56,095 bases of DNA from Betaproteobacteria bacterium (GCA_043782425.1 JAYWAM010000331.1:1-56095), one strand, 5' to 3'; counted from the first letter of the stretch, positions 9,431 through 51,241 are shown. The notes: generated from the sequence alone by a model not told the origin. Made by a program: numbers and translations.

Positions 9431-9438
9431 GTTAAACC

Positions 9439-23921: not shown

Positions 23922-23951
23922 ATTTGCTTACATCACCGATCCGCATGCTCT

Positions 23952-25139: not shown

Positions 25140-25170
25140 TTTTCTCTTGGCGCACGCACGGAGACGTCGG

Positions 25171-27683: not shown

Positions 27684-27686
27684 GAG

Positions 27687-28874: not shown

Positions 28875-28930
28875 GGCGACATATATTTCTCGGCTAATGA
28901 TCGAGTATTACAAAAATCATGCGACGCTTT

Positions 28931-29053: not shown

Positions 29054-29144
29054 TGTTAACCACAGACTGTCTTGTCGATAGGAAACTCGCAATTGAAAAA
29101 AGTAGCGCTTTCGTTGTCGTCCAAGTTACCGACTCCTGAGTAAC

Positions 29145-30614: not shown

Positions 30615-31553
30615 ATGATTACGCAAAGAATCGACGCCATAACCCGGATCCCCGAGAAATACCTGCATAGCGTACTCCCCGCCCCCCGGTCTGTGAAAAT
30701 CGAATTAACATCGCAGTGCAATTACCGCTGCGGATTTTGCGCCCACCGCCTGAGAATGAAAGATCGCGGCGAGATGGATTTTTCTCTTTACCAGCGCCTC
30801 GTTGCTGAAATGGTGGACGCAGGGGTGGAAGAACTGGGCATGTTCTACATCGGCGAATCGTTCATGTGCGAATGGCTTCCAGAAGCCATTGAGTTTGCGA
30901 AAAAACGCGGCATAGATTATGTCTTTCTGACAACCAATGGGTCTCTCGCCACGCCGGAAAAGTTGAGGAAATGCATGGCGGCCGGTCTTGATTCGCTTAA
31001 ATTCTCCATGAACAACTCGGACGAGCAGCAGTTCAAGGAAATCACCAGTGTAAAAACCAAACTCTTCTACGATTCGCTCGCCAACCTTAAGGCTGCAAAA
31101 AAAATCCGCGATGAAGGCGGCTACGGCTGCCGGATATACGCATCGAGTATTCAGTACAACGGCGAACAGCAGGAACGTATGCTCGCCCTGGTTAATGGAA
31201 TTCGTCCTTATGTCGATGAACACTATTGGCTCCCGCTTTACTCCATGGGCAGCCTGGCCACGCAACGTGAGGAAGAGCTGGGTTACCGTCCGATAGCAGG
31301 GAACCAGGGGCGCATTGGCGCGCTACGGGAACCGCTTCCCTGCTGGTCTGCCTTCACTGAAGGGCACATCACCCATAATGGAAAACTTTCTGCCTGCTGT
31401 TTTGATGCAGGTGACCGTTGGGTAATGGCCGACCTGAACCAGGTTTCCTTTATGGAGGGTTGGAACAGCACGCTTTTCACCAACCTTCGCGAGGCGCATC
31501 TGCGCAAAGATGTCACCGGCACAATCTGTGAACAGTGCGTTGCCTACAATTAA
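30615..31553 (+). CDS. radical SAM enzyme with SPASM/twitch-like C-terminal Cys cluster
   Basis: 312-aa ORF with CNYRCGFC (CX3CX2C) near the N-terminus and C-terminal cysteines CWSAF...GKLSACCFDAGD...GTICEQCV. A strong SD (AAAGGAG) lies upstream. Confidence 0.85.
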   Translation: MITQRIDAITRIPEKYLHSVLPAPRSVKIELTSQCNYRCGFCAHRLRMKDRGEMDFSLYQRLVAEMVDAGVEELGMFYIGESFMCEWLPEAIEFAKKRGIDYVFLTTNGSLATPEKLRKCMAAGLDSLKFSMNNSDEQQFKEITSVKTKLFYDSLANLKAAKKIRDEGGYGCRIYASSIQYNGEQQERMLALVNGIRPYVDEHYWLPLYSMGSLATQREEELGYRPIAGNQGRIGALREPLPCWSAFTEGHITHNGKLSACCFDAGDRWVMADLNQVSFMEGWNSTLFTNLREAHLRKDVTGTICEQCVAYN

Positions 31554-31761: not shown

Positions 31762-33309
31762 ATGAAAATCACTTACATTACTTTTGCCCCCGTGTACCAA
31801 AAGGACGGGGAAATTACTTCAGAGATGGCCTCGGCGCGATACCGCGTCATCTTACCGGCGATTCAGATCTCCCGGCGCGGGCACCAAGTTGAGATTCGCT
31901 CCGTTCCACCATCGGGATGGACCCCTGCTTTGGCAGCGGAGATTACTGCGGATTGCGTTGTGCTTTCCAAGAGTTTTCATGAAAGCAATGAGCTGCTTGT
32001 CGATAATCTCCGTGGACGGGGAATACGCGTATTGCTCGATCTGTGTGACAACCATTTTGAGGATCCGCGACTAGGGCCTCATCTCAAAAAATTGATCTCT
32101 ACCGTCAGCGGCATCATCGCATCAACCGCCAAAATGGCCGAAGTGATCAAAGAGCACACAGGCAAGGACTCAATAGTAATTGGCGACCCTGTAGAGGGTT
32201 CCCGTAGCGAACCGGCATTTGAACCAAGGTTTCCTTTTCTCAAGACACTGTGGTTCGGGCATCCTAGCAACCTGGAAAGTCTCATGAGAATAATTCCGGA
32301 GCTGGAACGGTTTTCTGGCGCCATCCCGATTTCGTTGAAAGTAGTGACCAGCCTGGTTAAAGGCTTAGAGGAAAAACTACAGCGCATCACTCAGAACTGC
32401 GCTGGACGATTGAAAATAGAGCTTGCGCCCTGGAGTATTGAGGCGACCTGGAAAGCGCTTTCAGAAACGAACATCGTACTTATCCCATCCCTGGAAAACG
32501 AGAAAAAATCTGTAAAGAGTCCAAATCGTTTGGTCGAATCTCTTTGGGCGGGACGGTTTGTTGTCGCCCATCCCATTCCCGCATATGGCCTTTTTGATGA
32601 CGCCGCCTGGGTTGGCAACAGCATTACTGAAGGAATTCGCTTTGCCCTGGATAATCCCGAACAGGTCGTCAAGAGGATAACCAAGGGGCAACAGCGGGTG
32701 TCGTCCCATTTGTCCAGCTATCATATTGGGCAACTTTGGCTTCAGACATTTGGAGATATCACGCCACGACCCCTCATGCTCAATCTGGGCTGTGGCGACA
32801 AGATTCTTCCGGAGTATGTCAACGTTGACGTGGTGGAAAGTCGCAAGGGCATGCGACCCGATGTTATCTGCGATCTCCATGACCTCGTACCGTTTGCAGA
32901 TGATTCTGTCGACGAAATTCTTTCAGTGCACGTCGTAGAACATTTTTGGCGCTGGGAAGTTTTCGATATACTGCGCGAATGGGTTCGCGTGCTGAAGCCG
33001 GGCGGTAAAATGGTGCTCGAATGTCCCAATCTCCAATCGGCTTGTGAGACATTTCTTGCCGATCCTGTCACCCATTCACGCGAAGATCAGGCTGGTCGAA
33101 GGACGATGTGGGTTTTTTACGGCGACCCTGCCTGGAAAGACCCTTACATGAATCACCGCTGGGGATATACGGTACAGAGCCTTGGTGAAATTATGATGCG
33201 AGCCGGCCTGGTGAACGTCAGGCAAGAGCCCGCTCAATTCAAACTTCGAGAACCGCGTGATATGCGAGTAACAGGAATTAAACCTGGCGCCGGGAGCACA
33301 CCAAAATGA
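31762..33309 (+). CDS. fusion protein: N-terminal glycosyltransferase-like domain + C-terminal class I SAM methyltransferase
   Basis: 515-aa ORF. The C-terminal ~170 aa carry MTase motif I LNLGCGDKILPEYVNVDV and VLKPGGKMVLECP. The N-terminal ~330 aa end in a GT-B-like KSPNRLVESLWAGRFVVAHPIPAY segment. The GT call is tentative. Confidence 0.75.
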   Translation: MKITYITFAPVYQKDGEITSEMASARYRVILPAIQISRRGHQVEIRSVPPSGWTPALAAEITADCVVLSKSFHESNELLVDNLRGRGIRVLLDLCDNHFEDPRLGPHLKKLISTVSGIIASTAKMAEVIKEHTGKDSIVIGDPVEGSRSEPAFEPRFPFLKTLWFGHPSNLESLMRIIPELERFSGAIPISLKVVTSLVKGLEEKLQRITQNCAGRLKIELAPWSIEATWKALSETNIVLIPSLENEKKSVKSPNRLVESLWAGRFVVAHPIPAYGLFDDAAWVGNSITEGIRFALDNPEQVVKRITKGQQRVSSHLSSYHIGQLWLQTFGDITPRPLMLNLGCGDKILPEYVNVDVVESRKGMRPDVICDLHDLVPFADDSVDEILSVHVVEHFWRWEVFDILREWVRVLKPGGKMVLECPNLQSACETFLADPVTHSREDQAGRRTMWVFYGDPAWKDPYMNHRWGYTVQSLGEIMMRAGLVNVRQEPAQFKLREPRDMRVTGIKPGAGSTPK

Positions 33310-33959
33310 ACCATGAAAGCCGCAATCCGCAGAACATCTGGGATGAATACACGGAATGGTTTCACAGCACCAACGTGTGGAAAGGTATGTCCTATCATGG
33401 GATACGGACGTTAAAATTTCCTTCCGACGCGTGGAACTATCAGGAAATCATTTTCGAGCGGGGCATCGATTTTGTGGTAGAGACCGGCACCCGACACGGC
33501 GGGTCGGCGCTTTTCTTTGCCGACACTCTCAAAGCGCGAAATGCGAGCGGCTTCGTCGTCACCATCGACATAGATTCCGAATCACGACAAGTCGCCGCTC
33601 ACGAAAGTATTCGCTTTTTGCTCGGCGACAGCGGTTCGCCCGAAGCGGTCGCCGTGGTCAGGAAACTGCTGCCCGCGCAGCGCGGGCCGCTGTTTCTCAT
33701 ATTGGATTCGGACCACACCAAAGCACATGTATTAAGAGAGCTCGAAGTATGGGTGCCCTCGTTGCAGCGCGGGGACTATCTTGTGGTCGAGGACACAATT
33801 GTCAACGGTCGCCCCGTACGACCGAATTTCGGACCCGGCCCCTGGGAAGCGATAATGGACTACCGGGAGCACAATCCCGGACAACTATGGCACGATAAAG
33901 CAAGGGAAACCAAGTTCGGAACGACTGCGGCGCCCAACGGCTACTACGTGAAACTGTAA
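33306..33959 (+). CDS. CmcI (cephalosporin hydroxylase)-family O-methyltransferase
   Basis: 217-aa ORF with the typical CmcI sequence WKGMSYHGIRTLKFPSDAWNYQEIIFERGIDFVVETGTRHGGSALFFAD. It has an ATGA overlap with the upstream fusion gene. Confidence 0.8.
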   Translation: MNHESRNPQNIWDEYTEWFHSTNVWKGMSYHGIRTLKFPSDAWNYQEIIFERGIDFVVETGTRHGGSALFFADTLKARNASGFVVTIDIDSESRQVAAHESIRFLLGDSGSPEAVAVVRKLLPAQRGPLFLILDSDHTKAHVLRELEVWVPSLQRGDYLVVEDTIVNGRPVRPNFGPGPWEAIMDYREHNPGQLWHDKARETKFGTTAAPNGYYVKL

Positions 33960-33982: not shown

Positions 33983-34678
33983 TTACGACGAAATGCGTTC
34001 CTCAAAATAGGAAGGTCCTTCTGGGGTATCTTTCCGCTGCTGGATCCAGAACTCCCATGCAGGGCCGGGATTACGTTTTGCCGTAGAGCGAATTTTTTCT
34101 TCCCACCAAAGCGCAGGATAGATAGTAATGTGGGCGTTTTCGCCGGAAGGCAGATGTTTCTTTGCCGGGAAACAGGCGACATTTGCAAAGACAAATTTCG
34201 TGGCGTAACGAAAAATCTCGTCAAGGATCCAGTCCATATCTTCTTCCGGGCAATGTTCAAGCACATCGGTCGAAATTACACCGTCAAATTTTCCGCTCGG
34301 CAGATTGCTATGCGGCACATAGCTAGGGTCATAGCAGGAAATCTGTTTCACGCCCCAATATTCTTTGATACTGCCTAACACGCGACCGTCTGCATTTTTA
34401 ATGTTCATCGGGCCGTACTGAAAACCTTTTCCGCATCCATAGTCGAGAATACTCTCAGCGCCATAGCGAATAATCAGCGTTCTGATACTGTCAGCCTGGG
34501 GGATAAGGCTTTGACCGGAAAAGGTATTTTGCGGCGTGATGCCGAGACTCTTTTCTCCCTCGACATGCATGGTCTGGTATTGCTTGATCAGATGATGATA
34601 GCGCGGGCTCGGATTACTGCGGCTGAAACTCACATGATTCTCCAAAGATGAAATTCGCTCCAAAGCACGGCCTGCCAA
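33983..34678 (-). CDS. class I SAM-dependent methyltransferase
   Basis: 231-aa ORF with motif I ILDYGCGKGFQYG and DGVISTDVLEHCPEED. It is the last gene of the long minus-strand operon. Confidence 0.8.
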   Translation of the reverse strand: MAGRALERISSLENHVSFSRSNPSPRYHHLIKQYQTMHVEGEKSLGITPQNTFSGQSLIPQADSIRTLIIRYGAESILDYGCGKGFQYGPMNIKNADGRVLGSIKEYWGVKQISCYDPSYVPHSNLPSGKFDGVISTDVLEHCPEEDMDWILDEIFRYATKFVFANVACFPAKKHLPSGENAHITIYPALWWEEKIRSTAKRNPGPAWEFWIQQRKDTPEGPSYFEERISS

Positions 34679-34711
34679 TCCGGCCTGACAAGAGCAACAA
34701 TATGAATTTTA

Positions 34712-36736
34712 TCATTTGCACAGAGTGGCATAGTGATCGCGCATCAAGTCCGCGTGCAGCTTTTCGGCCATATCGGCCCAACTGCCATCTGTCGCCTGCC
34801 TATAAATCGCGAATCGCGGAAACCACGGCGATCTTTCTGTTCCATACATCCAGCGCCATTCCGGCGGGTGGGGTACAAGCACCTTTGCAATCCTGTTCAC
34901 GCCAGCACGAAGATGCATGTTGGTGTTGCTCACGCCCACATAATCATCTAGCAGCGAAACCAGCGCCAAAGCTTGCTCCATATCCTCGTTAGAGGCAGAA
35001 AGATCAAAAACTGGTTGACCGATAGCAGAGGCCAACCGATCCAGTTCTGTCGGCTGCGGCGCCCTCTGTAGCGAAACAAAGGTCGCGTCCAGATCCTTTA
35101 ATCCTGTTGCCAACGCATTGAGCGGCGCCTCCTTGTGAAGAAGGTTGCGTTGCTTTGATGTAGGCCGGACGCCTGCTCTCCAGGTAAGCCCGATATAAGG
35201 TGGAGGACCAAAATTGCTTAGCAATTGTTTCATGGCCTGACACATCTCAGGTTTGGCGCTAAGAGCAAACGGGGGGGGCGCATTTTCCGCTTCATTGCAC
35301 TGCAAGATAAACGGCAAATCACCGAGTGGGATTTGTACTGAACCCGCCGGAATGGGGTCCTGCAATCCGATCACTGAATCAAACAAACCCGTCCTTTGAA
35401 ACATTTCAGCAAGGCGCGCTTCACCGCAGTAAACCAACGTCGAACACAATTCTCGGACAAGTGGGGCGAAGCGCATAAAAAAAAGAATGTCGCCCAACCC
35501 CTGCTCGGAATGGAGCACGACGACTTTATCAGACAGCGTTTTCAGCTCGATGCGTTGCGGGTATCCAGGCTGTCGTGGCAACACATCGGGATGATGCCCG
35601 TTTCCCTTCCCCCAAACGTATTCCTTCCAGCCCTCCCCCCAGTTTCCCAGCGCAAGTTGCGCGTGGGCAAGATTGGTGTGGGCCTGCCAGAGATCGGGGT
35701 CAAGTTTAATGGCACGGCGGCAATATCCTACTTCCGCCCCAGGTTCGCCGCACTTGCGGAAAATGATTCCCAAGGTCACCTGCGCAATAGCAGAAAAAGG
35801 ATTGAGTCTGATGACTTCAGCGTGATACTTCTTGGCAAGGTCATACATTTTCTCATCATCATAAACAATGCCTAAATTCATAAAGGCTTCGGAATAGTCT
35901 GGCCGGAGTGCGATGGCGCGCTCGAAACACTCGATGGACGCTTTGACATCACCAAGGCGGCACAGCGCAGTTCCCAGATTGTTGCTCGCTTCGGCAAGCT
36001 GTGGATTCAAGCCAAGCGCTTGCCTGAAACTCCGGGCGGCATTTTCGTAATCTTCGTGCTCGAGTAAAAGCATTCCCAGGTTATTGTGCAGTTCGGCCAC
36101 GTCCGGGCTAAGCTCAACCGCCTTGCTCAGCGCTTGAGCAGCCGCAACCAAGTCCCCCTGCTCCTGTAACGCAAGTCCGAGATTGCTGTACGCCGCACCC
36201 AGATCGGGCTTATGGGCAATCGCGGCCTTAAATGCCGCCAGCGCTTCATTGAGCCGTTCTGTACGCTTGAATAGGTTGCCGAGATTGTTGCGCGCTTCGG
36301 CAAATCCCGGTTTAAGCTCGATTGATTTTTGATAATGGTGTTCAGCCTCTGTAAAGCGCTGTAGATGCTGGAACAGCAGTCCCAGGTTGTAGTGAGCTTC
36401 TGCATTTTTTGCGTCGAGCTGAAGCGCCCGCTGGTAGTTCAAAATGGCTTCGTTAGAGCGACCGTGTTCGTGCAAAGCCATTGCCATACTACAGTGGTAC
36501 ACGGCATTATTCGGATTCACATGAATGGCGCGCGCCAGCAGACCAATAGCATCGGGATGCCGCGCGCGATGCGCGATCAGTCCCAATAGATGTAAAGCAT
36601 CAGGGTGATCCGGCTGGACCTGAAGGACACCCCGATAAAGCCTTTCGGCTTCCTGAATGCGACCGGCCTGCTGCTGCTGCAGTCCCTGTTGCAGCGCTGA
36701 AAAAATTTCAGATTGGCTCGTCATTGCCGTCGACAA
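34712..36736 (-). CDS. TPR-repeat protein fused to a GT9 (heptosyltransferase)-like domain
   Basis: 674-aa ORF. The N-terminal ~370 aa consist of tandem 34-aa TPR units (AEAHYNLG..., AEARNNLG..., AELHNNLG...). The C-terminal domain has GLGDILFFMRFAPLV and VGVSNTNMHLRAG, resembling GT9 nucleotide-sugar-binding blocks. It is a paralogue of 37473..39089. Confidence 0.8.
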   Translation of the reverse strand: MSTAMTSQSEIFSALQQGLQQQQAGRIQEAERLYRGVLQVQPDHPDALHLLGLIAHRARHPDAIGLLARAIHVNPNNAVYHCSMAMALHEHGRSNEAILNYQRALQLDAKNAEAHYNLGLLFQHLQRFTEAEHHYQKSIELKPGFAEARNNLGNLFKRTERLNEALAAFKAAIAHKPDLGAAYSNLGLALQEQGDLVAAAQALSKAVELSPDVAELHNNLGMLLLEHEDYENAARSFRQALGLNPQLAEASNNLGTALCRLGDVKASIECFERAIALRPDYSEAFMNLGIVYDDEKMYDLAKKYHAEVIRLNPFSAIAQVTLGIIFRKCGEPGAEVGYCRRAIKLDPDLWQAHTNLAHAQLALGNWGEGWKEYVWGKGNGHHPDVLPRQPGYPQRIELKTLSDKVVVLHSEQGLGDILFFMRFAPLVRELCSTLVYCGEARLAEMFQRTGLFDSVIGLQDPIPAGSVQIPLGDLPFILQCNEAENAPPPFALSAKPEMCQAMKQLLSNFGPPPYIGLTWRAGVRPTSKQRNLLHKEAPLNALATGLKDLDATFVSLQRAPQPTELDRLASAIGQPVFDLSASNEDMEQALALVSLLDDYVGVSNTNMHLRAGVNRIAKVLVPHPPEWRWMYGTERSPWFPRFAIYRQATDGSWADMAEKLHADLMRDHYATLCK

Positions 36737-36760
36737 AGCAGATGGCGACCTGCTCCGCTC

Positions 36761-37444
36761 TTAGCGGTTTTCCGCAACCAACATGGCGTCGCGTTCACGG
36801 AACCACTCTTCTGCATATTCACACTGGCGGGTTTCATTGAAATAGGGTCCGCCGATTGTGAAATGAACCAGTGAAGCATCCCTGCGCGGCGCATCATAGC
36901 CGACCAGGTGATTCCATCCGGAGGGAAGCTCGCCAATCAGCGCATCGTCTGCCAGCCACTTGAACTGATGCAGTTCAAGACCCGTCGCAGCATTTACAAA
37001 ATCAGGCGTGAGGGCGCGGCATTTTGCACAGTTCATTAGCATGACGCTCGACCAGTTCTTTTTCTCATACTTGGTTTGCTGGTAGCCGAGAAACTTCACT
37101 TCTTCCTTCGGTACATGGTTGTGCTTGACCACCTGAACCGCAAAGCGATCATCGCGCAACGCCCATAATCTGGCAATATCGTCCAGTACGAGCATATCGT
37201 TATCCGTAAAAATCGCCCAGCCTTCAAAACCCGCCAGATAAGGAGTGAGAAAACGCGAGAACGAGAATTCCGTGGATTGTAGAGGATTGCGCTCACGCGT
37301 ATAGACCCCCTTCAATTGCGCGAGCATCAGCGGCGTTATCGAGACGGGCAATGAGGATCGAACATTGATGCTATGGGAAAGCACATTGTATGCAACCGCT
37401 TCGCGCGCGTCGTAACCGATATAAATACGAATTGTGTTGCTCAT
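36761..37444 (-). CDS. small glycosyltransferase (GT-A, GT8-like, DxD)
   Basis: 227-aa ORF with IRIYIGYDAREAVAYNV at the N-terminus and a DxD-type motif IFTDNDMLVLDD. Confidence 0.65.
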   Translation of the reverse strand: MSNTIRIYIGYDAREAVAYNVLSHSINVRSSLPVSITPLMLAQLKGVYTRERNPLQSTEFSFSRFLTPYLAGFEGWAIFTDNDMLVLDDIARLWALRDDRFAVQVVKHNHVPKEEVKFLGYQQTKYEKKNWSSVMLMNCAKCRALTPDFVNAATGLELHQFKWLADDALIGELPSGWNHLVGYDAPRRDASLVHFTIGGPYFNETRQCEYAEEWFRERDAMLVAENR

Positions 37445-37472
37445 AGAGGAAGTCTATCTGAAGTAAAAGAAG

Positions 37473-39089
37473 TCACTTTGCGTCGGGCTTAGCCGAAGAT
37501 TCTGACAGCATTTTGCCGAGGTGGGCAAGCGCATTTTGCCAGCCGTCCCGCTGTTGCCGGAAAATCTGCATTTCGGGGTACCACGGCGAAAATTCACCGT
37601 CCCACATCCAGCGCCATTCTGACGGAATCGGCGCCAGGATGCGCGCACAACGGCCGGTGCTGGCACGCAAATGCACGTTGGTATTGCTCACGCTGACGTA
37701 GTCGTCGACCAGCGACATGAGCGCCAGCATATCTTCAAGGTCTTCATTTACGGCCGCTAGATCGTGAACCGGTCGCCGCGTGATCGCAGCAAGCTGTTCA
37801 GTCTCGCCGGCTTTAGGCAAGCGTTGTACCGAAATCAATGTCCCCGGCGCAAAACGCAAAGCCGCTGCAAGCTGGACTAGGGGAATTCCCTTGTAAAGGG
37901 CGTGCTCCATGAGTTTGCTCCCGGCGCGCCAGGTGACCGCCGTATAGGGGGGTGGCCCCAGACGCCCCAAGGTCTCGCATATCCGTTGCACCCGCTCCGG
38001 CTCGGGCATAAGATCAGGTGTCGGCGGGAGCGGATCACCTTCACTCATGCCAAGCAAGCCCGGCAGATCGCCCATCGGTACTCGCGGCAGATCCTCAGGT
38101 GGAGTTTCGTCCATGCCGTAGCAGCGCGTCAGTCCAACCCCGCGCGCAAGCATGGGCGCGAGACGTTGGTCTCCCCAATAGATGAGTTCCACGCCGCGCG
38201 CGGCAAGCAGCGGGACAAAGCGCGCAAAAAATAGCACGTCCCCTACCCCCTGTTCGCCAATAAGCACCAGCGTACGATGGCGCAACAGGGCGGCATCCAG
38301 GTCGGCAGGCAGTGCAGGGATACCACTGATGCCTAGTGGCGCTGCGAGAGGGCGCACACTGCGATATCCATAGGCCCTGAACCCTTCCTTCCATCGGCCC
38401 TGGGCGAGAAGAATATGCGCTCTGCCTTCTTGCGCCAAAGCCAAATCGGGCTTTAACTCCAGCGCTTTTCGATAACAAGCCATCGCGCCTTCATGGTCTG
38501 CATGCGCCGAGAACAACATGTTGCCCAGATTGTGATGTCCGAGGGCAAAACCGGGATTGGTCAGGATAGTCTGTCGGTAGGCTTTGATCGCAGCTTCAGC
38601 CCGTCCCGCTTTGCGCAGCGCATTCCCAAGATTGAAATGCGCTTCGGCAAACTGCGGCATTGCCTCGATTGCCTGGCGATACAGTTCGATTGCGCGTTCT
38701 CCCTCGCCTTGTTCTTCGTGCATCAGCCCAAGGCTGTTCGCTGCCGGAGCAAAGCGCGGATTGAGACCGAGCGCCTGCTCGAAACTGGCGCGTGCACCTT
38801 GCACGTCGCCCAGTTCTTTCAATATCTGGCCGAGGGTGCGGTGATACGCTGCGCGGCCTGGAGCAATTTCCACCGCCTTACGTGCATGCGTTTGCACATC
38901 TTGATGAACGCCGCGTTGTAGCCCTATTGTCGCGAGCAGGTGATGCGCATCGGCATGACGCGGTTCAGCCTGTAGGATGCGCTGGTACAAGCCTTCTGCC
39001 TCTTCTAACCGCCCAGCGCGATGATGTTCCATCGCGTCAGATAACCAGCTCGCAACGGAAGAGACGGGCGCGCTGCTCACTTTTTGCAC
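37473..39089 (-). CDS. TPR-repeat protein fused to a GT9-like domain
   Basis: 538-aa ORF with TPR units in the N-terminal half. The C-terminal half (GVGDVLFFARFVPLL ... VSVSNTNVHLRAS ... EWRWMW) is collinear with the C-terminal half of 34712..36736. Confidence 0.8.
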   Translation of the reverse strand: MQKVSSAPVSSVASWLSDAMEHHRAGRLEEAEGLYQRILQAEPRHADAHHLLATIGLQRGVHQDVQTHARKAVEIAPGRAAYHRTLGQILKELGDVQGARASFEQALGLNPRFAPAANSLGLMHEEQGEGERAIELYRQAIEAMPQFAEAHFNLGNALRKAGRAEAAIKAYRQTILTNPGFALGHHNLGNMLFSAHADHEGAMACYRKALELKPDLALAQEGRAHILLAQGRWKEGFRAYGYRSVRPLAAPLGISGIPALPADLDAALLRHRTLVLIGEQGVGDVLFFARFVPLLAARGVELIYWGDQRLAPMLARGVGLTRCYGMDETPPEDLPRVPMGDLPGLLGMSEGDPLPPTPDLMPEPERVQRICETLGRLGPPPYTAVTWRAGSKLMEHALYKGIPLVQLAAALRFAPGTLISVQRLPKAGETEQLAAITRRPVHDLAAVNEDLEDMLALMSLVDDYVSVSNTNVHLRASTGRCARILAPIPSEWRWMWDGEFSPWYPEMQIFRQQRDGWQNALAHLGKMLSESSAKPDAK

Positions 39090-41287
39090 TTTGCCGCAAA
39101 TTCGCGCGCAAGCGCGTCGTTTAAATCCCGCAACGGCTCATCCTGCCCGAACAGCCGTCCATGCATAGCGCGTATCCTCTGCGACAGTTCTTTTCGAAAA
39201 TCGCTGTCGCGCGCAAGCCGGAGAGCAATGCGCACATAGTCCTGAATATCTTTTGCGATAAGCTCTTCGCAGCCTATCATCTGTAGCATGGCGTAGCTCT
39301 GTCTTCCACGCATGAATTTCCCAGGCAAAGTCACAATCGGTAATCCCACCGCAAGCGCATCGAGGGAAGTGTTGCCACCGGACCAATGCAGCGTATCGAG
39401 CATAGCATCACACAACTGACAGATGCGCAGATATTCCGCATGTGCCACCCTTGGCAGGATCTTGATGCGGCCTGCCGACTGCAATGCGCGCGCCGCAAAT
39501 CCGCCCGCTAGGCGGTTTATAAAGCGCTGTGTCAGCGCGGGATGTTCCGCCGCAAACATAACCAATACCAAATCGGGTGCCGCCTCGAGAATATCGAGAA
39601 GCACCACATCATTGTCAGGGTGAATCTTGAACAGGGATTGTGGCACGAGAAAAAGCAGCTTGTCTTGCGGAAGTTGAAAATCGTCGCGTACTGCTGTTAC
39701 CTGCTCGGTCGGCAGCCGGTAGTTTGTGCCCAACCCTGGGAGCGTGACCAGCTGTTCGACATAGTGATTCGCATGGTCTGCGGGCTCCATCATCGCTGGC
39801 GAAAAAAACACATCGATATTTTCATGCCCGGTGGTGACGGGATGGCCCCAGCCTACACATTGCAATGGCGCCAGCCGCATTGATGCGAGCGGAAACAGAA
39901 GCGGATTCATTCCCTGTTCTGGATAGATGAGAATATCGAGTTTGTCGACCGCAATGGCTGCAGCGATCTTTAACAGCGACTGGTCGGCAACGTTGCGCCA
40001 ATGTGCCGCACTGGACTTAATCCTCGTGGTCAGAGGATCGCTGGCCGCGTTAAGGTGATAAACCCATGCCTCGAATCGATCACCGTCCAGTTGCGTGACC
40101 CAGCTTTCGAAATACCTTCCTGCGGTGCAATCATAGAAATTGTTGCTGGCGAATCCAACACGCAGACGTCGGCCTTTTGCGGGTTGCGCAGCAATCGGAT
40201 TGTAAAATTGCGGCGCGGACTTGCTGAGGATGGATTTGACGACAAGCGCATAGTCGCGTTGAAATGTGAGATCGTTCTTTCCCTGGTAGGCAAGATAAAA
40301 ATTTGCCCAGCCGATTTCGTCCTCCCAAGTGGAAACTAATTTTGCAGCCGGATTGGTGACGCTATCGAGCAGCACTTTAACCCCTGCAATAACGCGCGCT
40401 CTACTCTGCTCAATGTGTGCTCCGTCCCGGTAGATCATCGGTAACACGAGATTTGCGCGTATCTGCGCCCTCAGGCTGTCGGGCTGAATTTGCAGTACGC
40501 AGCGGTATGCGGTGATGGCTGACTCAGCGTCACCTTGCTCCCAAAAGAAATCCGCAACATCACTCCACAGAGCCGCATCGGCTGTTCTTATTTTTAATGC
40601 CGCCTGGAAATGGCGCAGCGCGGCATCGACGTTCTGCCTCTTGCGATAAAGACGCGCAATAATGGCATGAACCTCACCATTTGCAGGCTGCAATTCGACC
40701 GCCCTGCCGTAGTGGATGAGGGCGCCGTCTTCATCTCCCTGTGCAGCCAGCAAAATTCCAAGACCGCGAAGCGCAATCACATTGTCGGGATCGGCTATTA
40801 GTGCCTGGCGCAGTGAACTGACAGCTTCGGGTTTGCGGTCCTGAGCGACCAAAGCTGAAGCGAGATTGGTATACCCGGGTGCGACGCCCGGTCGGATTTT
40901 AATGGCCGCCCTAAATTCTGTTTCCGCTTCGGCAAAGCGGTGTTGATCCATGAGGACGATGCCGAGACTGTTGCGTGCCTGAAAGAGATCAGACTTTGCC
41001 AGAATGGCGCGGCGCAGCGCTCGTTCCGCTTCGGACAGGTTGCCACGGTCTTGCCAGAGCTCGCCCTCCAGTGCATGCGCCGCCGCACGAAACGGGTCCA
41101 ACAGCAGCGTCTGGCGCACGGACTCCATGGCAAAGTCCGTGTTACCCATATGCTGACAGATGCTGGCCATCAGGAACCATGCGTCGCTGCTTTTGGGTGA
41201 GTCACGCAGGACCTGTTGGCAGGTTTCGAATGCTGTTTGAAATTGTGCGCGCTGAAACATCTCGCGCGCGGTGTCTAGCAATGCCAA
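39077..41287 (-). CDS. TPR-repeat protein fused to a GT41 (SPINDLY/O-GlcNAc-transferase-like) domain
   Basis: 736-aa ORF with ~300 aa of TPR repeats. These are followed by the characteristic GT41-type blocks LRVGFASNNF..., DILIYPEQGMNP..., APLQCVGWGHPVTTG..., LDTLHWSGGNTSLDALAVGLPIVTLPG. Confidence 0.85.
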   Translation of the reverse strand: MALLDTAREMFQRAQFQTAFETCQQVLRDSPKSSDAWFLMASICQHMGNTDFAMESVRQTLLLDPFRAAAHALEGELWQDRGNLSEAERALRRAILAKSDLFQARNSLGIVLMDQHRFAEAETEFRAAIKIRPGVAPGYTNLASALVAQDRKPEAVSSLRQALIADPDNVIALRGLGILLAAQGDEDGALIHYGRAVELQPANGEVHAIIARLYRKRQNVDAALRHFQAALKIRTADAALWSDVADFFWEQGDAESAITAYRCVLQIQPDSLRAQIRANLVLPMIYRDGAHIEQSRARVIAGVKVLLDSVTNPAAKLVSTWEDEIGWANFYLAYQGKNDLTFQRDYALVVKSILSKSAPQFYNPIAAQPAKGRRLRVGFASNNFYDCTAGRYFESWVTQLDGDRFEAWVYHLNAASDPLTTRIKSSAAHWRNVADQSLLKIAAAIAVDKLDILIYPEQGMNPLLFPLASMRLAPLQCVGWGHPVTTGHENIDVFFSPAMMEPADHANHYVEQLVTLPGLGTNYRLPTEQVTAVRDDFQLPQDKLLFLVPQSLFKIHPDNDVVLLDILEAAPDLVLVMFAAEHPALTQRFINRLAGGFAARALQSAGRIKILPRVAHAEYLRICQLCDAMLDTLHWSGGNTSLDALAVGLPIVTLPGKFMRGRQSYAMLQMIGCEELIAKDIQDYVRIALRLARDSDFRKELSQRIRAMHGRLFGQDEPLRDLNDALAREFAAKCKK

Positions 41288-41326
41288 GGTTGCCTTTCTA
41301 CCATAGGATATTTTCGCTCCACCGCT

Positions 41327-42244
41327 TCATTGCGGCGGTCGCATGCTGCTGTCGGTCGCAGCCTTTTCAAGTGCATCGAGCATGCCCCACATATGCCACG
41401 CCGATGGCTCTAAACGCACCGCTTCTTCAAGTGATTTTACCGCACGCTCGAATAGCCATGCCTCATTGAATTCAGCTGCCGGTGGCTCAATCCAGATTTC
41501 TCTTTTGCCGTCCGCCGGATCAACCATAGAGCGAAATATCACCAGCGGTACGCGATGCGCCACCGCGAGCCGTACCGCTCCCGTAGGGAAGAGCGCCTTA
41601 GTACCAAGAAGTTGCACGGTTCGGGATTTTACATTCGGCGCGGGGGGCACATCGAACAGTCCGCAGACCGAGACCCCGTTGCGTAATGCAGAGACAAATT
41701 GGCGCGCCGCTCCTCCCGTAAAGTTGAGCCCGCCGCCAATTGCGCGCGCAGTCTCAAAGTTGCGTAGCCTCATGTAAGCGTATAAAACCGGCCTGCCGCG
41801 AAACGCGTTCTTGTCTACCGCTATCGCCACTCCGGCAAACGGGCCTGTCGCATACTGCATGCTGCGCAGGGCGAACATTCCCTCCCCCCAGTGATACGTC
41901 ATGCCGATAAAGGGTTTTTGCCTGGGCCACTCCCCATGTCGGATCAGGCGCTTTTCCAGCCACGCCCGGCTGCGCGTAAGCGAGAGAAAAAGATCGACAT
42001 GATCCATCAGCCGCATAAAACAGTAGCGTGTCAGCCAGTCATCTTCGTCGCGAACGACAAGCCGCGTCTTAGCCACTTCAAGAGCGAAGTGCGCAGCGGC
42101 CGCGTAAAACCATCTGCGACGCGCAATCAAGCGGATCCCTCGAAAGGCAATAGGCCACGGCAGTAGCGACAATACCAACGGCCAGATAAATAGTTCCGCA
42201 GTGTCAAGCCCTGCCGTGCGCCACCACCTCATGAATCGAGCCAT
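41327..42244 (-). CDS. LpxL/HtrB-like lysophospholipid/lipid A acyltransferase family protein
   Basis: 305-aa ORF with an N-terminal TM segment and a TYHWGEGMF block resembling the H(x)4[DE] acyltransferase motif. The assignment is tentative. Confidence 0.5.
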   Translation of the reverse strand: MARFMRWWRTAGLDTAELFIWPLVLSLLPWPIAFRGIRLIARRRWFYAAAAHFALEVAKTRLVVRDEDDWLTRYCFMRLMDHVDLFLSLTRSRAWLEKRLIRHGEWPRQKPFIGMTYHWGEGMFALRSMQYATGPFAGVAIAVDKNAFRGRPVLYAYMRLRNFETARAIGGGLNFTGGAARQFVSALRNGVSVCGLFDVPPAPNVKSRTVQLLGTKALFPTGAVRLAVAHRVPLVIFRSMVDPADGKREIWIEPPAAEFNEAWLFERAVKSLEEAVRLEPSAWHMWGMLDALEKAATDSSMRPPQ

Positions 42245-43443
42245 GCATGCATTATTCTCACCACCCCCAACTCACGCGATCCACCCGTGACGCTGAGCGG
42301 CTTCTCTACCGTGTCCAGCACGCGCAACGCCTCCGGGTCCATCGCGTGTGCGCGAAATACGTAAGCGCCGGGCAGCAAAGGCAACCTGTCAAAGCGCACG
42401 CAAAAAGAAAAACTGTTGTCTCCGTTGTCATGCAGCGATGCGCCATTCACCTCGCTTGAGGTGCCATACACAGACGTTCCATCAATGCGCAAGATGCCAA
42501 GCGCCACGTGCGGGCAGCGCCCGTCGGATGATTTTACACACCCCCGTGCAATTAGATTTGTCTGTTGCAAAATGCTAGAAACTGGTAGACCGGCATCGTC
42601 CAGCAACTCGAATTCGACGACCTGATATCCCGTCGCGCCGGAGAACTCGGCTACCTTTGCCTCGCCTTCCACCTCTCGCTTGGACTTTTCTTCCTGGTAG
42701 GAAAGATATTCGCGCGTGACATCTGCGGCGTTCCCTGAAAGGTGTATGCGCCCCTGATGAATCCAGGCGGCATTTTTACAAAGCTTCTGGATATGGTATA
42801 GCCCGTGCGAGCAAAGCAGCAATGTTCCGCCCCGGTCCAGGTAATCCTGCATCCAGCGTATACATTTTCGCTGGAACGCCTCATCACCTACCGCTAACAC
42901 TTCGTCCGTAATGAGTATGTCTGGGGTGAGCGCGGTCGCAACCGCGAAGCCCAGGCGCACCACCATACCGGACGAGTAGTGCTTGATAGGCTCGTCTATG
43001 TACGAGCCGATATCTGCGAAAGAAATAATGGCGTTGAGCTTGTCATAGGTTTCTTCCCTTGAGAGTCCAATCAAGGCGCTAGCAAGATAGATGTTTTCCC
43101 GTCCGGTGTATTCTGAATGAAATCCGCTGCCCAGTTCAAGCAAAGCGCCTACCCTGCCTTGTACTTTTATTTTTCCCAGCGTCGGCTTGATAACACCCGC
43201 GATAATTTTAAGCAGCGTTGATTTCCCCGCCCCATTTTCACCCACCAGTCCAAAAGACTGGCCGCGGTAAACCTCCAGATTAATGTCCGAGAGCGCCGCA
43301 AAACCCTCCAGCCGCCCCGCCATAAGCAATGTCGCCAGGGTGGCCAGACGACCTTTCCCGCCTGTAACCTGGGGGTAGAGCTTGCTCACGCCGCTCATCT
43401 CAATGAGTGCGCTGCCCCTGCCGGATATTGCCGAATCGGTCAA
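42229..43443 (-). CDS. wzt: polysaccharide ABC transporter ATP-binding protein with C-terminal extension (Wzt-type)
   Basis: It has Walker A GENGAGKST, signature YSSGMVVRL and Walker B ILITDEVLAVGD. About 160 extra C-terminal residues form a beta-rich domain like the Wzt carbohydrate-binding module. The start is placed at the TTG at 43443, which overlaps the wzm TGA and is preceded by GAGGA; the track ORF extends to 43515. Confidence 0.88.
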   Translation of the reverse strand: MTDSAISGRGSALIEMSGVSKLYPQVTGGKGRLATLATLLMAGRLEGFAALSDINLEVYRGQSFGLVGENGAGKSTLLKIIAGVIKPTLGKIKVQGRVGALLELGSGFHSEYTGRENIYLASALIGLSREETYDKLNAIISFADIGSYIDEPIKHYSSGMVVRLGFAVATALTPDILITDEVLAVGDEAFQRKCIRWMQDYLDRGGTLLLCSHGLYHIQKLCKNAAWIHQGRIHLSGNAADVTREYLSYQEEKSKREVEGEAKVAEFSGATGYQVVEFELLDDAGLPVSSILQQTNLIARGCVKSSDGRCPHVALGILRIDGTSVYGTSSEVNGASLHDNGDNSFSFCVRFDRLPLLPGAYVFRAHAMDPEALRVLDTVEKPLSVTGGSRELGVVRIMHAWLDS

Positions 43444-44336
43444 AGAAAATCCTCGAAATGCGGCGCGATCCGCTGAAAAAATAGATTCGCAATAAACAGA
43501 AATATGCCTGTACATATGATGATTACCCAGTCACCTGCGACTGGCGCTGCGCCCCCTAGCAGGGCATCGCGCAAACGCTCAGATACCATGGCAATCGGAT
43601 TCCACAGCACAACACTGCGCAAACTTTCTGGCACGAATGACAGCGGATAAAGAATAGGTGTGACGTAAAATAAAACCATGAAGAAAGGGCCGGTGATATG
43701 TTCAATATCGCGAATAATTACTTGCATTGCGGACAGAATAAAACCCATGCCAATGGCAATAAGGAACAAAGCAAACAGCATAAGAAATGCAAGCACAATG
43801 CCCTGGACCCGAACAGGCTCTCCCGCTAAATATAAGACGGTTAGAACCAGTATATATCCCGCCAGGTGGACAGCAAAAGTGGCGACAACCGTGGCGTAAA
43901 TCAGCAGCTCACGAGGGAAAGCCACCTTTCGAATCAGGCCGGCGTTGGACTGAATCGTCATGATCGAACGCTGTACAGCCTCCTGGAACATCAGCCACGG
44001 CCACAACACCACCGCAAGAAAGGTTATGAATCCGGCCTTACCGATCTCAGGAAACTTGACCTTGAAAATGACGGTAAAAACGAAGTGATAGACAGCCAGC
44101 AAGATAAGCGGCTGTAGTAAGGCCCACCCGAGACCGCTAAAGCTGCCCACATAGCGCGTTTTGATATCGCGCAGGACGAAATTCAGCAGCAACCATCTTG
44201 AAGGCCAGAGTGCTGATACTGGATTGTGGGTCGCTCTCACGGTACGAATCGAATGTTTTAATAGGCGGGAAATTAAAAAATCATGGCCAGTCAGGTACTC
44301 GTGGCATGCAGCATGGCATCGTGCTCGCCGAACCAT
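43440..44336 (-). CDS. wzm: ABC-2 type polysaccharide export permease (Wzm-type)
   Basis: It carries an N-terminal RDIKTRYVGSFSGLGWALLQP signature and six hydrophobic segments. The start is uncertain: no clear SD precedes the ATG at 44336, and an in-frame GTG lies further in. Confidence 0.88.
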   Translation of the reverse strand: MVRRARCHAACHEYLTGHDFLISRLLKHSIRTVRATHNPVSALWPSRWLLLNFVLRDIKTRYVGSFSGLGWALLQPLILLAVYHFVFTVIFKVKFPEIGKAGFITFLAVVLWPWLMFQEAVQRSIMTIQSNAGLIRKVAFPRELLIYATVVATFAVHLAGYILVLTVLYLAGEPVRVQGIVLAFLMLFALFLIAIGMGFILSAMQVIIRDIEHITGPFFMVLFYVTPILYPLSFVPESLRSVVLWNPIAMVSERLRDALLGGAAPVAGDWVIIICTGIFLFIANLFFQRIAPHFEDFL

Positions 44337-45566: not shown

Positions 45567-46592
45567 TTAATTTTTTGCTGAGCTTGCATTCTCCGGCGCA
45601 GGGCCGGGAGCAGGAGCAGCGCCTTTGGGCAGCACACCATATTCAACTTTGAAGCGCAGTTTTTCGATGGCCTCAGGGTTGGGTACGGGTTCCTGTTTAG
45701 TGATCAAATCATTCACCATCAGTTTAACCTGCGCCTCAAGATAATCCCTTGTGGCCGCATCCATAAGGTTGGCTTTGACTTCCTCAAAGGTAAACTGTTT
45801 CGCTGGCTGGCGCGCGCGGAACTGAATAATATGTAGCCCATAGGGTGATTCGACTAACGCACTGATTTCGCCTGGCTTGGTCATGGCAAACGCAGCGTCG
45901 GAAAAGGAGGCAACCATCTTGTCCCGGGTAAAAAATCCGAGGTCGCCCTTGTTGCTGGCGCCACTCTTGTCGTCGGAGTACTGCAGCACAAGTTCATCAA
46001 AGAATTTTTCTCCTGGATTGGCTAGCGCCTTGGCTCGCACTTGTTCAGCTATCTGCCGCGCCCTCTCAAAACCGTTCTGCTTGTAGCCAATTAGAATATG
46101 CGCCACCCGAACCTGCTCTGGCGAGTAGTATTCTTTGGCATTGGCGCGATAAATATCGCGTGCTCGCGCTTCAAGATTGGGAACCTTTACTTTCTTCTTC
46201 AAAGCTTCAAAGTAAAGCGTAGAGAGCTCGCGCTCCGCAGCATAGCGCACCTGGGCCATCACACCAGGATCGCGATCAAAATTCTCGCTGCGTGCAGCTT
46301 CGGCAAGCGTGCGGTTGAGGAAGATACGTTCGAGCATTCCATTTATACGCTCTTCGGTGGAACGCTGCTCTAAACGTTTTTCCGGCGGAGTACGGTTGAG
46401 TTCGGCCTCAAAATCTCCGCGCGTAGCATTGACGGACTTGCCACGGACCAGCGGCAAATCATAGGGAACTTCTTTCAGGCGATCATTAAACTTGATTTCG
46501 CCCGACGCATTATTCTGGGCATACACCATCGTGAGTGTCAATGCACCGAATAAGAAAGAGGCAAAAATTTCTAAAACGACCTTTTTTTTCAT
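45567..46592 (-). CDS. parvulin-type peptidyl-prolyl cis-trans isomerase (SurA/PpiD/EpsD-like), exported
   Basis: The start is set at the ATG at 46592 (MKKKVVLEIFASFLFGALTLTMVYA signal). The PpiC domain reads VRVAHILI...SGASNKGDLGFFTRDKMVASFSDAAFAMTKPGEISALVESPYGLHIIQF. Confidence 0.85.
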   Translation of the reverse strand: MKKKVVLEIFASFLFGALTLTMVYAQNNASGEIKFNDRLKEVPYDLPLVRGKSVNATRGDFEAELNRTPPEKRLEQRSTEERINGMLERIFLNRTLAEAARSENFDRDPGVMAQVRYAAERELSTLYFEALKKKVKVPNLEARARDIYRANAKEYYSPEQVRVAHILIGYKQNGFERARQIAEQVRAKALANPGEKFFDELVLQYSDDKSGASNKGDLGFFTRDKMVASFSDAAFAMTKPGEISALVESPYGLHIIQFRARQPAKQFTFEEVKANLMDAATRDYLEAQVKLMVNDLITKQEPVPNPEAIEKLRFKVEYGVLPKGAAPAPGPAPENASSAKN

Positions 46593-46620
46593 GGTTGTGT
46601 AGCTCATTCGTGGTGATTTA

Positions 46621-46652
46621 CAAAACAAACTCCGCCCTGGGCTAGGGCGGAG
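46621..46652 (-). terminator. rho-independent terminator of the 631-aa repeat-protein gene
   Basis: Stem CTCCGCCCT (46630-46638) / AGGGCGGAG (46644-46652). On the minus strand it is followed by TTTGTTTTG. It lies 34 nt after the TAG stop. Confidence 0.7.
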
Positions 46653-46686
46653 CCTGAGTAACGCATACAGCTCTAAGAATTAAGGC

Positions 46687-48582: not shown

Positions 48583-48629
48583 GTTCAATCCTCTATGTGG
48601 TGAAACCGCGTTCAAAATATCCGTTTGAT

Positions 48630-50830: not shown

Positions 50831-51241
50831 TTAACCGTTAAAAACAAACCACCAATTTCCAATGTCTTTTACCCAAATTTCCTCAATAACCGTTGTCACC
50901 TCGCCACCTAGACGACGGTCAGAAAACTTAATCTCCAGCTTGACGCTGCACCTATCAGCCTCGCAGTTTGTCGATTGTACCTTAGCTGGCCGCCAGTTGA
51001 GTAAGCGGATTTTACCTTTGTAAAGCGCCAGCGGGTTTGCCACCTTACTGCCGGGACTCAAGAACTCATAAGCCTTGTCGAGATCCTTTGCTACCAACGC
51101 CCGCCAGCGCGCTTCTGCTCTGGCTGAAACCTGACTCTCACTGCTTGCTGCGCCACTTGAAGCAGTACCAGTGTTTGGTGCGATACCGGCACATCCAAAC
51201 AACGACGCAAACACAGCGAGCAACAAAATTTTCTTAAGCAT
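50831..51241 (-). CDS. small lipoprotein (NTF2/SnoaL-like size), possible secretin accessory
   Basis: 136-aa ORF with signal plus lipobox MLKKILLLAVFASLFGC. It lies downstream of the secretin gene. Confidence 0.75.
   Translation of the reverse strand: MLKKILLLAVFASLFGCAGIAPNTGTASSGAASSESQVSARAEARWRALVAKDLDKAYEFLSPGSKVANPLALYKGKIRLLNWRPAKVQSTNCEADRCSVKLEIKFSDRRLGGEVTTVIEEIWVKDIGNWWFVFNG

Follow-up and report, generated by a model that had tools for sequence, protein, structure and literature searches.

Conserved Wzm/Wzt loci with TPR-fused glycosyltransferases and a type II-secreted protein: a candidate envelope-glycan pathway in a betaproteobacterium

The window analysed here is a stretch of 56,095 nucleotides (nt) from a betaproteobacterium (GCA_043782425.1, JAYWAM010000331.1:1-56095), in which eight minus-strand genes between positions 44336 and 33983 encode the ABC transporter proteins Wzm and Wzt, an acyltransferase-like protein, four predicted glycosyltransferases (GTs), three of them fused to tetratricopeptide repeats (TPRs), and a methyltransferase-like protein. 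With about even confidence, this operon is read as an ABC-transporter-dependent envelope-glycan pathway, making an O-antigen-like or surface-anchoring polysaccharide and tied to a protein secreted by a type II secretion system (T2SS). Comparison of related loci identifies a conserved core made up of the T2SS secretin, a lipoprotein, a secreted protein of about 500 amino acids (aa), a peptidyl-prolyl isomerase (PPIase), Wzm, Wzt and a TPR-fused enzyme of family GT41 (TPR-GT41), with the two genes for GT9-like enzymes and the methyltransferase genes being lineage-specific additions. Statements on function throughout are drawn from sequence, fold and synteny.

The operon and its conserved neighbourhood

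The genes of the operon, in the order of transcription, are:
43440..44336, minus strand: wzm, ABC-2 permease (PF01061)
42229..43515, minus strand: wzt, ABC ATPase with Wzt_C domain (PF00005, PF14524)
41327..42244, minus strand: putative acyltransferase, 305 aa (weak PF03279; PatA/LpxM/LpxL fold in the model)
39077..41287, minus strand: TPR-GT41, 736 aa (PF13844)
37473..39089, minus strand: TPR protein with GT9-like GT-B domain, 538 aa (TPR matches; predicted fold)
36761..37444, minus strand: GT8-like transferase (GT-A, DxD), 227 aa (weak PF01501)
34712..36736, minus strand: TPR protein with GT9-like domain, 674 aa, about 10 TPRs (TPR matches; C-terminal domain shared with the 538-aa protein)
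33983..34678, minus strand: S-adenosylmethionine (SAM)-methyltransferase-like protein, 231 aa, last gene of the operon (weak Methyltransf_11/23/25)

The eight open reading frames (ORFs) lie head to tail, with coordinates and sizes matching those of an earlier sequence-only reading of the window. Taking the longest ORFs, the successive junctions from the 5′ to the 3′ end of the operon measure -76, -16, +39, -13, +28, +24 and +33 nt, confirming the claim of that reading that the genes overlap or lie less than 40 nt apart from wzm to the terminal methyltransferase gene, with all gaps at 39 nt or less. Some of these overlaps are ORF extensions, since the ORFs of Wzm (298 aa, against 255-274 aa for homologues in an alignment with four orthologues) and Wzt (428 aa, against 381-406 aa for orthologues) are longer than their orthologues, and the true start of Wzm, judging from the alignment, is probably 30-45 codons further downstream. 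Gene callers likewise start the 538-aa ORF 19 codons later, giving a 519-aa protein and a spacing of about 44 nt in place of the -13 overlap, and start the 305-aa ORF at codon 5, giving 301 aa. The packing is tight nevertheless, with no strong terminator-like hairpin found within the operon on the minus strand; matches in a consensus scan were not enriched over shuffled sequence and carry little weight. The window lies on a metagenome-assembled contig of 61.5 kb and at least two genes of a neighbouring exopolysaccharide (EPS) cluster look frameshifted, so small sequence errors are possible. Its housekeeping proteins stand as singletons at 90% identity.

Upstream of wzm the window carries the following genes:
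45567..46628, minus strand: parvulin-type PPIase (Rotamase match, E 2e-21) with an N-terminal signal or anchor sequence
46687..48615, minus strand: PKD-domain, Ser/Thr-rich secreted protein (PKD matches; 27% Ser+Thr, 21 Cys)
49193..50698, minus strand: 501-aa secreted protein, p501 (signal-peptide-like N-terminus in the translation)
50831..51241, minus strand: 136-aa lipoprotein with lipobox LFGC (from the translation), directly after the secretin gene
51570..53750, minus strand: T2SS secretin GspD (TIGR02517, E 5e-140, above cut-off)

The genes beyond GspD include those for T2SSM_b and PilN-like proteins (PF10741, PF05137), the 136-aa lipoprotein is possibly a pilotin, and the T2SS may be a general one rather than one dedicated to this locus. 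p501, encoded between the secretin and small lipoprotein on one side and the PPIase and wzm on the other, is strongly conserved at its N-terminus (MNTFKRKSLY...GQVLIYPYYTV), and three of its cysteines are invariant; no Pfam, NCBIfam or PDB relative was found even with a 19-sequence profile. A strong terminator-like hairpin (46626-46656, minus strand; 13-bp stem with 8 G-C pairs, followed by a T-run) lies between the PKD and PPIase genes.

A metagenome scan with a Wzm alignment returned 525 relatives, of which the 80 loci taken for comparison are the best-scoring and not a random sample; partners were counted only in loci with enough flanking sequence, and gene calling in these GC-rich loci was crude, taking the longest ORFs. 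By median pairwise identity the loci are truly diverse (Wzm 52%, p501 45%, PPIase 33%). The partners were found as follows:
Wzt, downstream of wzm: 42/43 loci
GT41 catalytic domain, downstream of wzm: 16/21 loci
PPIase, upstream of wzm: 26/26 loci
p501 homologue, upstream of wzm: 15/15 loci
136-aa lipoprotein, upstream of wzm: 12/13 loci
GspD secretin, upstream of wzm: 5/7 loci
227-aa transferase, immediately upstream of wzm: 15/48 loci
Acyltransferase homologue, downstream of wzm: 6/29 loci
GT9-like domain, either side of wzm: 4/26 loci
Three methyltransferases, either side of wzm: 0/26 loci

The PPIase is thus kept upstream of wzm though only about 30% identical between loci. The whole gene order recurs in L001, a 467-kb JGI contig, at 86-94% identity outside the transporter cassette, and the core recurs in many diverged loci, such that the arrangement is no chance juxtaposition. 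In the closer relatives L001, L082 and L083 the order wzm, wzt, acyltransferase, GT41 is kept, while L086-L088 carry T2SS genes, secretin, lipoprotein, the ~500-aa protein, a variable protein, PPIase, the 227-aa transferase, wzm, sometimes wzt, and TPR-GT41. The slot of the PKD protein is variable: fn3 or other proteins occupy it in L082 and L086-L088, and in most metagenomic loci the PKD protein is missing. Among ORFs downstream of Wzt in the related loci GT2 (10), GT41 (9), GT4/GT1 (8) and methyltransferases (7) are enriched, and in many loci the block adjoins a convergent cluster of lipopolysaccharide (LPS) core genes with msbA (GT9, GT4, MsbA, GT4, GT9). In the Usitatibacter-like lineage, several loci (L002, L086, L089, L107 and L109) have a GT2 gene and one or two genes for lysyl-endopeptidase-like secreted proteases between TPR-GT41 and the LPS-core/msbA cluster.

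By these counts the operon as bounded in the sequence-only reading is not the evolutionary unit; the conserved block instead extends from the secretin to TPR-GT41. Of the neighbouring Thr/Ser-rich secreted proteins to which that reading had drawn attention, the 501-aa protein emerged as a conserved partner and the PKD protein did not.

The transporter and the enzymes

Wzm matches PF01061 ABC2_membrane (E 1.6e-14, 54 bits against a cut-off of 26.9), and Wzt matches PF00005 ABC_tran (E 1.9e-20) and, at residues 293-408, PF14524 Wzt_C (32.6 bits, cut-off 30.4), a domain known from exporters of capped O-polysaccharides; the Wzt orthologues also give a weak Wzt_C match. The best NCBIfam matches of Wzt are TagH and Wzt/RfbE (E 1e-51 to 1e-55, under the equivalog cut-offs), with NodI following at E 3e-23.

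The 736-aa protein matches PF13844 Glyco_transf_41 (E 1e-33, 116.9 bits against a cut-off of 25), with several TPR families matching residues 1-300, N-terminal to the catalytic domain. Against solved structures, the sequence of the catalytic half matches human OGT (9e-30), the Thermobaculum OGT (7e-27) and SPINDLY (2e-24), and more weakly XcOGT (7e-16) and HMW1C (5e-10). Its motif LFKIHP aligns with LYKIDP of OGT, which we take to hold the UDP-binding lysine. Judged by its sequence the protein is a true member of GT41. None of the three TPR enzymes shows an evident signal peptide in its translation.

The 538- and 674-aa proteins each consist of 6-10 TPRs and a common C-terminal domain of about 300 aa, the two copies of which are 43% identical (E 6e-74). 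In the window proteins this domain matches neither a Pfam family, PF01075 included, nor an NCBIfam one at E <= 0.01, and no match was found in 120 homologues, whose names, where given, are generic ('tetratricopeptide repeat protein', 'hypothetical protein'). An AlphaFold model built from an alignment of 38 sequences (pLDDT 91, pTM 0.90) has as its best Foldseek match the heptosyltransferase WaaF (1psw; E 1.9e-8, TM 0.59), followed by the GT9 structure 3tov, WaaC and TibC, with TM scores of about 0.5-0.6. Sequence searches of the PDB gave nothing useful, the sole match of a domain-restricted profile being GT9 3tov at a non-significant E of 0.86. The GT9 heptosyltransferases WaaC, WaaF and TibC share with the modelled domain an N-terminal 'GxGD' and a C-terminal '...HL.A' motif at equivalent positions; they differ in that the domain here lacks a significant PF01075 match, is fused to TPRs and sometimes occurs in tandem copies. 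The model therefore supports 'GT9-like' as a description of fold and not of family membership. S-N-T-N stands in place of the D-T-G motif that we take to be that of WaaC, suggesting that the donor sugar is probably not ADP-heptose.

Relatives of the GT9-like domain number 514 in a scan of GTDB in which each species was represented by a single genome; they come from alpha-, beta- and gammaproteobacteria, Usitatibacter, Rhodospirillaceae and Thiomargarita among them, and their identity to the window protein reaches 47% at most. In 145 of the best 150 representatives (900-3,100 aa; library P0275-P0424) 2-6 tandem TPR-GT9-like modules lie on one polypeptide, the longest of 3,114 aa; the profile behind this finding included TPR columns, such that its 1.29 million matches among 1.84 billion proteins are mostly generic TPR and give no family size. 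The two TPR-GT9-like genes of the window, flanking the 227-aa transferase gene, look like a split version of such a multi-module protein.

The 227-aa protein matches PF01501 Glyco_transf_8 at E 1e-3 (19.2 bits against a cut-off of 24.3) and contains a 'DND' motif. It has 7953 homologues, many with a precomputed PF01501 assignment and some named 'lipopolysaccharide biosynthesis glycosyltransferase' by JGI, while an exact-sequence look-up found no record and a PDB sequence search nothing useful. The transferase pairs with TPR-GT41 or with TPR-GT9-like genes, depending on the genome.

Around 77 loci anchored on the GT9-like domain, the 227-aa transferase is a neighbour in 21-30, often directly adjacent, with homologues of the 231-aa methyltransferase in about 15 and of a 515-aa methyltransferase in 8, and a CmcI-type methyltransferase also recurrent. 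From this survey, the portable unit is TPR-GT9-like plus 227-aa transferase, with or without methyltransferases. Such portability raises the possibility of a mosaic, in which an ancestral export unit of wzm, wzt, sometimes the acyltransferase, and TPR-GT41 is merely co-transcribed with a separately mobile unit of TPR-GT9-like, 227-aa transferase and methyltransferase genes, inserted downstream, that serves another acceptor, for example the LPS core. We consider this improbable. It accords with the low counts of GT9-like genes and methyltransferases beside Wzm, and with the Usitatibacter-like lineage, in which a trio of TPR-GT9-like, 515-aa methyltransferase and CmcI-type genes lies across the LPS-core/msbA cluster from the transporter. 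A pattern of identities points the same way: against L001, wzm reaches just 51%, wzt 55% and the acyltransferase gene 37%, where the other operon genes have 86-94%, and the wzt and acyltransferase of the window are nearer to those of L082 (66% and 75%), suggesting that the transporter cassette was exchanged by recombination. Set against a mosaic are the 227-aa transferase, which by its position directly upstream of wzm in 15 of 48 loci bridges both modules, the tight spacing of the operon with no strong internal terminator found, and the presence of all components within one neighbourhood in two diverged lineages.

The 305-aa protein matches PF03279 Lip_A_acyltrans below the cut-off (E 0.009, 15.6 bits against 22.3), and one homologue, 43% identical, carries a precomputed PF03279 assignment. 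A PDB sequence search gave nothing useful, while the AlphaFold model (pLDDT 87) has PatA and LpxM as its only Foldseek matches at E <= 0.001 (E 1e-7, TM up to 0.63/0.71). His114, in the motif 'HWGxG', is invariant among 13 homologues; the acidic residue expected at +5 is missing and the invariant Asp194, from the alignment, may substitute as its partner. The protein thus resembles PatA, LpxM and LpxL in its fold, in the helix that anchors it to the membrane at the N-terminus and in its invariant histidine, and differs from them in that its family falls under the Pfam threshold, lacks the acidic residue at +5, is small (15 matches) and occurs only beside such wzt genes. With homologues in just 6 of 29 related loci, the acyltransferase is accessory.

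An acyltransferase gene overlapping wzt, with PatA as the best structural match of its product, is what would be expected if the operon made an exported glycolipid or lipo-oligosaccharide, that is a short oligosaccharide that is acylated, methylated and exported by an ABC-2 transporter, following the logic of Nod-factor synthesis (NodC, NodA, NodS, NodIJ). PatA acylates the sugar of a glycolipid, Wzt also matches NodI, and the window operon has no polymerase-type GT2 or GT4. The rarity of the acyltransferase among related loci, the far closer match of Wzt to TagH/Wzt than to NodI and the presence of the Wzt_C domain in Wzt all speak against a product of this kind, and we regard it as very unlikely.

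The 231-aa protein gives weak Methyltransf_11/23/25 matches (E ~2e-4), and its homologues (43-56% identity) adjoin TPR-GT9-like genes in other genomes. Beyond the 3′ end of the operon, on the plus strand, and between the PPIase gene and wzm are further genes for SAM-dependent enzymes:
33306..33959, plus strand: CmcI-type sugar (rhamnosyl) O-methyltransferase (PF04989, E 1e-49), convergent with the operon
31762..33309, plus strand: 515-aa protein with C-terminal SAM methyltransferase domain (PF08241, E 1e-10)
30615..31553, plus strand: radical SAM/SPASM protein (PF04055, PF13186), upstream of the two methyltransferase genes
44639-45562, plus strand: second radical SAM/SPASM protein, between PPIase and wzm

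The CmcI-type enzyme also matches the NCBIfam rhamnosyl O-methyltransferase (E 1.7e-61, under the equivalog cut-off), and its gene accompanies TPR-GT9-like and 515-aa methyltransferase genes in L002, L006, L025, L048 and L075. No coiled coil was found in any of the three methyltransferases (231-aa, 515-aa and CmcI-type), whose role in capping is putative. L001 carries an orthologue of the first radical SAM/SPASM gene, 94% identical, at the corresponding position; the second was found in none of the related loci, and in the window it breaks the otherwise invariant adjacency of PPIase and wzm. The possibility that these two genes, each for about 310 aa and bracketing the operon, are paralogues was rejected, as their products are unrelated (BLASTP E 25).

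Of the assignments made in the sequence-only reading, those of Wzm, Wzt and TPR-GT41 were borne out, and the call of a terminal methyltransferase is in keeping with the weak matches found. The others held in part: 'GT9-like' as a fold and not as a sequence family, 'LpxL-like' as a fold with an invariant histidine but not at the curated sequence cut-off, and the small DxD transferase in its motif, its GT8 match lying below the curated cut-off. The acyltransferase, in which that reading saw a hint of an acylated product, is an accessory by its distribution.

Envelope glycan or glycosylated protein

In an envelope-glycan pathway, four soluble cytoplasmic GTs (TPR-GT41, the two TPR-GT9-like GT-B enzymes and the 227-aa GT8-like GT-A enzyme) would build a chain on a lipid carrier, which we infer to be the acceptor, at the inner membrane face, and the SAM methyltransferases (231-aa, 515-aa and CmcI-type) would decorate or cap it. 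In this lineage the PatA/LpxM-like acyltransferase may O-acylate a sugar. The carbohydrate-binding domain of Wzt would then recognise the finished chain for export by Wzm/Wzt. The TPR arrays would most likely dock the GTs to each other or to the transporter, a scaffold or ruler role like that of the coiled coils of WbdD and WbbB. The glycan would be functionally tied to T2SS-secreted p501 and the periplasmic PPIase, and would probably be the cell-surface anchor of p501, comparable to the O-antigen of the Aeromonas A-layer.

This pathway is favoured because of the Wzm/Wzt pair with its carbohydrate-binding domain, the company of GT2, GT4 and methyltransferase genes, the adjacency to LPS-core genes and the multi-module versions of the GT9-like proteins, which resemble multi-module glycan synthases. 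GT2, GT4/GT1 and methyltransferases are the usual content of O-polysaccharide clusters, and the GT9-like and GT8-like folds are typical of LPS families. The adjacent CmcI-type sugar O-methyltransferase and two further methyltransferases also count in favour of a methylated glycan.

Several observations weigh against an envelope glycan. Genes for a priming phosphoglycosyltransferase, for nucleotide-sugar synthesis and for a WaaL ligase are missing from the operon; the WcaJ-type polyisoprenyl-phosphate hexose-1-phosphate transferase at 26274-27683 belongs to the separate plus-strand EPS cluster, and the window has no Wzy_C/WaaL match, with two membrane proteins encoded at 27687-30509 lacking an assigned family. 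Priming enzyme and ligase genes are often encoded elsewhere in the genome. The three methyltransferases are missing from all 26 other Wzm-anchored loci surveyed for them. The 227-aa enzyme, with a median pairwise identity of 78% in related loci, is far more conserved than is normal for O-antigen transferases. In the loci anchored on the GT9-like domain, Wzm/Wzt almost never lie within 10 kb of the TPR-GT9-like and 227-aa module, the other neighbours being heterogeneous housekeeping genes. Lastly, the PDB matches of the GT41 domain (OGT, SPINDLY and HMW1C) are all protein glycosyltransferases, and every characterised GT41 enzyme known to us glycosylates proteins.

These GT41 precedents, together with TPR-GT-B fusions such as FlmG, make cytoplasmic protein glycosylation a serious rival. 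In this case the TPRs would select protein substrates, like those of OGT and FlmG, with p501 the likeliest, the GT41 and GT9-like enzymes would act before export, much as HMW1C glycosylates HMW1 before it is exported, and Wzm/Wzt would serve another purpose or a separate glycan. The solid membership of the 736-aa protein in GT41, with its closest solved relatives all acting on proteins, speaks for this rival, as does TibC, a protein heptosyltransferase that the model of the GT9-like domain matched; FlmG, a cytoplasmic protein transferase with an N-terminal TPR and a C-terminal GT-B domain, provides a precedent for the domain architecture (PMC7591256; bioRxiv 10.1101/2023.12.03.569772). p501 (15/15) and the PPIase (26/26) are invariant neighbours, and TPR-GT9-like and 227-aa modules exist without the transporter. 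Protein glycosylation nevertheless leaves the invariant Wzm/Wzt pair and the carbohydrate-binding domain unexplained. p501 is not notably rich in Ser and Thr (19.6% Ser+Thr) and has just five N-x-S/T sequons, the PKD protein, truly rich in Ser and Thr, is a variable neighbour, and no flagellin or nonulosonic-acid genes were found near any family member. Proteins with 2-6 module copies and the GT2, GT4 and methyltransferase neighbours resemble polysaccharide synthesis instead. On balance protein glycosylation is judged unlikely as the main role of the operon, and the envelope-glycan pathway is retained as the preferred reading.

Two further candidates were rejected. A PEP-CTERM/exosortase locus, prompted by the AsnB, sugar transferase, PPIase and TPR genes, was discarded as NCBIfam gave no exosortase or EpsD match, PrsT matched only at the level of its TPRs (89-107 bits against a cut-off of 312) and the secreted proteins have no PEP-CTERM tail. 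Membership of the FlmG class, compared by FlmG's description, was discarded as no flagellar or nonulosonic-acid genes were found among the neighbours in the 77 loci anchored on the GT9-like domain and as the family spans alpha-, beta- and gammaproteobacteria.

Elsewhere in the window, the separate EPS cluster (19882-30509, plus strand) contains genes for a sulfotransferase, a sugar dehydrogenase, AsnB, two GT4 enzymes and the WcaJ-type enzyme, an undecaprenyl-phosphate glucose phosphotransferase, together with two membrane proteins of 395 and 454 aa without a family match. Within it, a UDP-glucose/GDP-mannose dehydrogenase gene (20629-21914, plus strand) is split into ORFs of 136 and 302 aa in different frames, and an asparagine synthase gene (22010-23921, plus strand) into a 235-aa GATase ORF and a 456-aa synthase ORF overlapping by 167 nt; these splits are either assembly indels in the metagenome-assembled genome or pseudogenes. 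A pair of genes for a Ser/Thr protein kinase and a PP2C phosphatase (8486-10341, plus strand) lies between yicC and rph among housekeeping genes.

Relation to known systems and biological meaning

The prototypes of O-polysaccharide pathways with a Wzt_C-type transporter (WbdA, WbdD, Wzm, Wzt) are those of E. coli O9a and Klebsiella. The operon described here shares with them the ABC-2 permease, the Wzt_C ATPase, soluble cytoplasmic GTs encoded in the operon and potential capping methyltransferases, and in related lineages the block also adjoins LPS-core genes. In contrast to these pathways, the transferases here are a GT41/GT9-like/GT8-like set, the GT41 and GT9-like members TPR-fused, and not multi-domain polymerases of GT4, GT2 and GT1; the locus is without a coiled-coil terminator, priming enzyme or ligase; and the block is invariably linked to T2SS, PPIase and secreted protein genes. 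By its sequence the system has the transporter of a Wzm/Wzt pathway combined with unusual enzyme families. The nearest precedent for TPRs in an ABC-transporter-dependent O-polysaccharide enzyme is the ORF7 terminator of Klebsiella pneumoniae O4, which has a TPR-like bundle not seen, according to its authors, in other glycan-terminating enzymes (PMC11231755). In ORF7 a short bundle precedes a coiled coil and the enzyme is a Kdo-transferase of a new family, whereas here arrays of 6-10 TPRs are joined to GT41 or GT9-like domains.

The GT41 protein glycosyltransferases OGT, SPINDLY, XcOGT and HMW1C/NGT share with the 736-aa protein an N-terminal TPR array and a GT41 domain and are likewise soluble and cytoplasmic. 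Unlike theirs, the gene here is embedded in, and conserved with, a Wzm/Wzt operon, a context reported for no characterised GT41 enzyme. FlmG, also cytoplasmic, has the same order of N-terminal TPR and C-terminal GT-B domain, but by published account it is confined to the Caulobacterales and goes together with genes for flagellin and for pseudaminic or legionaminic acid (bioRxiv 10.1101/2023.12.03.569772). Judged by that description, the family here is set apart by its alpha-, beta- and gammaproteobacterial distribution and its lack of flagellar neighbours.

The O-antigen cluster of Aeromonas salmonicida has the S-layer gene vapA and a dedicated T2SS placed between its wzm and wzt (PMC4483657), such that this A-layer locus likewise combines T2SS genes and a secreted surface protein of about 50 kDa with a wzm/wzt glycan cluster. 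The presence of a T2SS and a secreted protein within a wzm/wzt locus, there and here, suggests that secreted protein and anchoring glycan are co-inherited. The GT set here is entirely different, and p501 is likened to the A-layer protein by locus layout only, its S-layer role being putative. In a full-text literature search no Wzm/Wzt locus with GT41 or TPR-GT9 enzymes was found described, in agreement with the claim of the sequence-only reading that no characterised system has this composition.

Taken one step further, the locus could represent an undescribed surface module widespread in soil proteobacteria, in which a T2SS-secreted, parvulin-folded protein of about 500 aa is glycosylated by, or tethered to, a GT41/TPR-GT9-like glycan exported by Wzm/Wzt; we put this forward tentatively, as the less probable outcome. 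If tethering is true, a lipid-linked glycan would be the first non-protein acceptor for GT41; if glycosylation is true, cytoplasmic protein glycosylation of the OGT type would be coupled in a new way to an ABC-2 exporter. To our knowledge the roles of bacterial OGT homologues are largely obscure, and a GT41 gene conserved beside a polysaccharide-type exporter in deeply diverged lineages provides a concrete context for one clade of them. The analysis also defines three large uncharacterised families, the TPR-fused GT9-like domain, the 227-aa GT8-like enzyme and the ~500-aa secreted protein, and ties them to a T2SS and a PPIase. Should the glycan anchor or modify the secreted protein, this would constitute a new envelope-assembly system in abundant and little-studied soil bacteria, such as the Usitatibacter-like betaproteobacteria.

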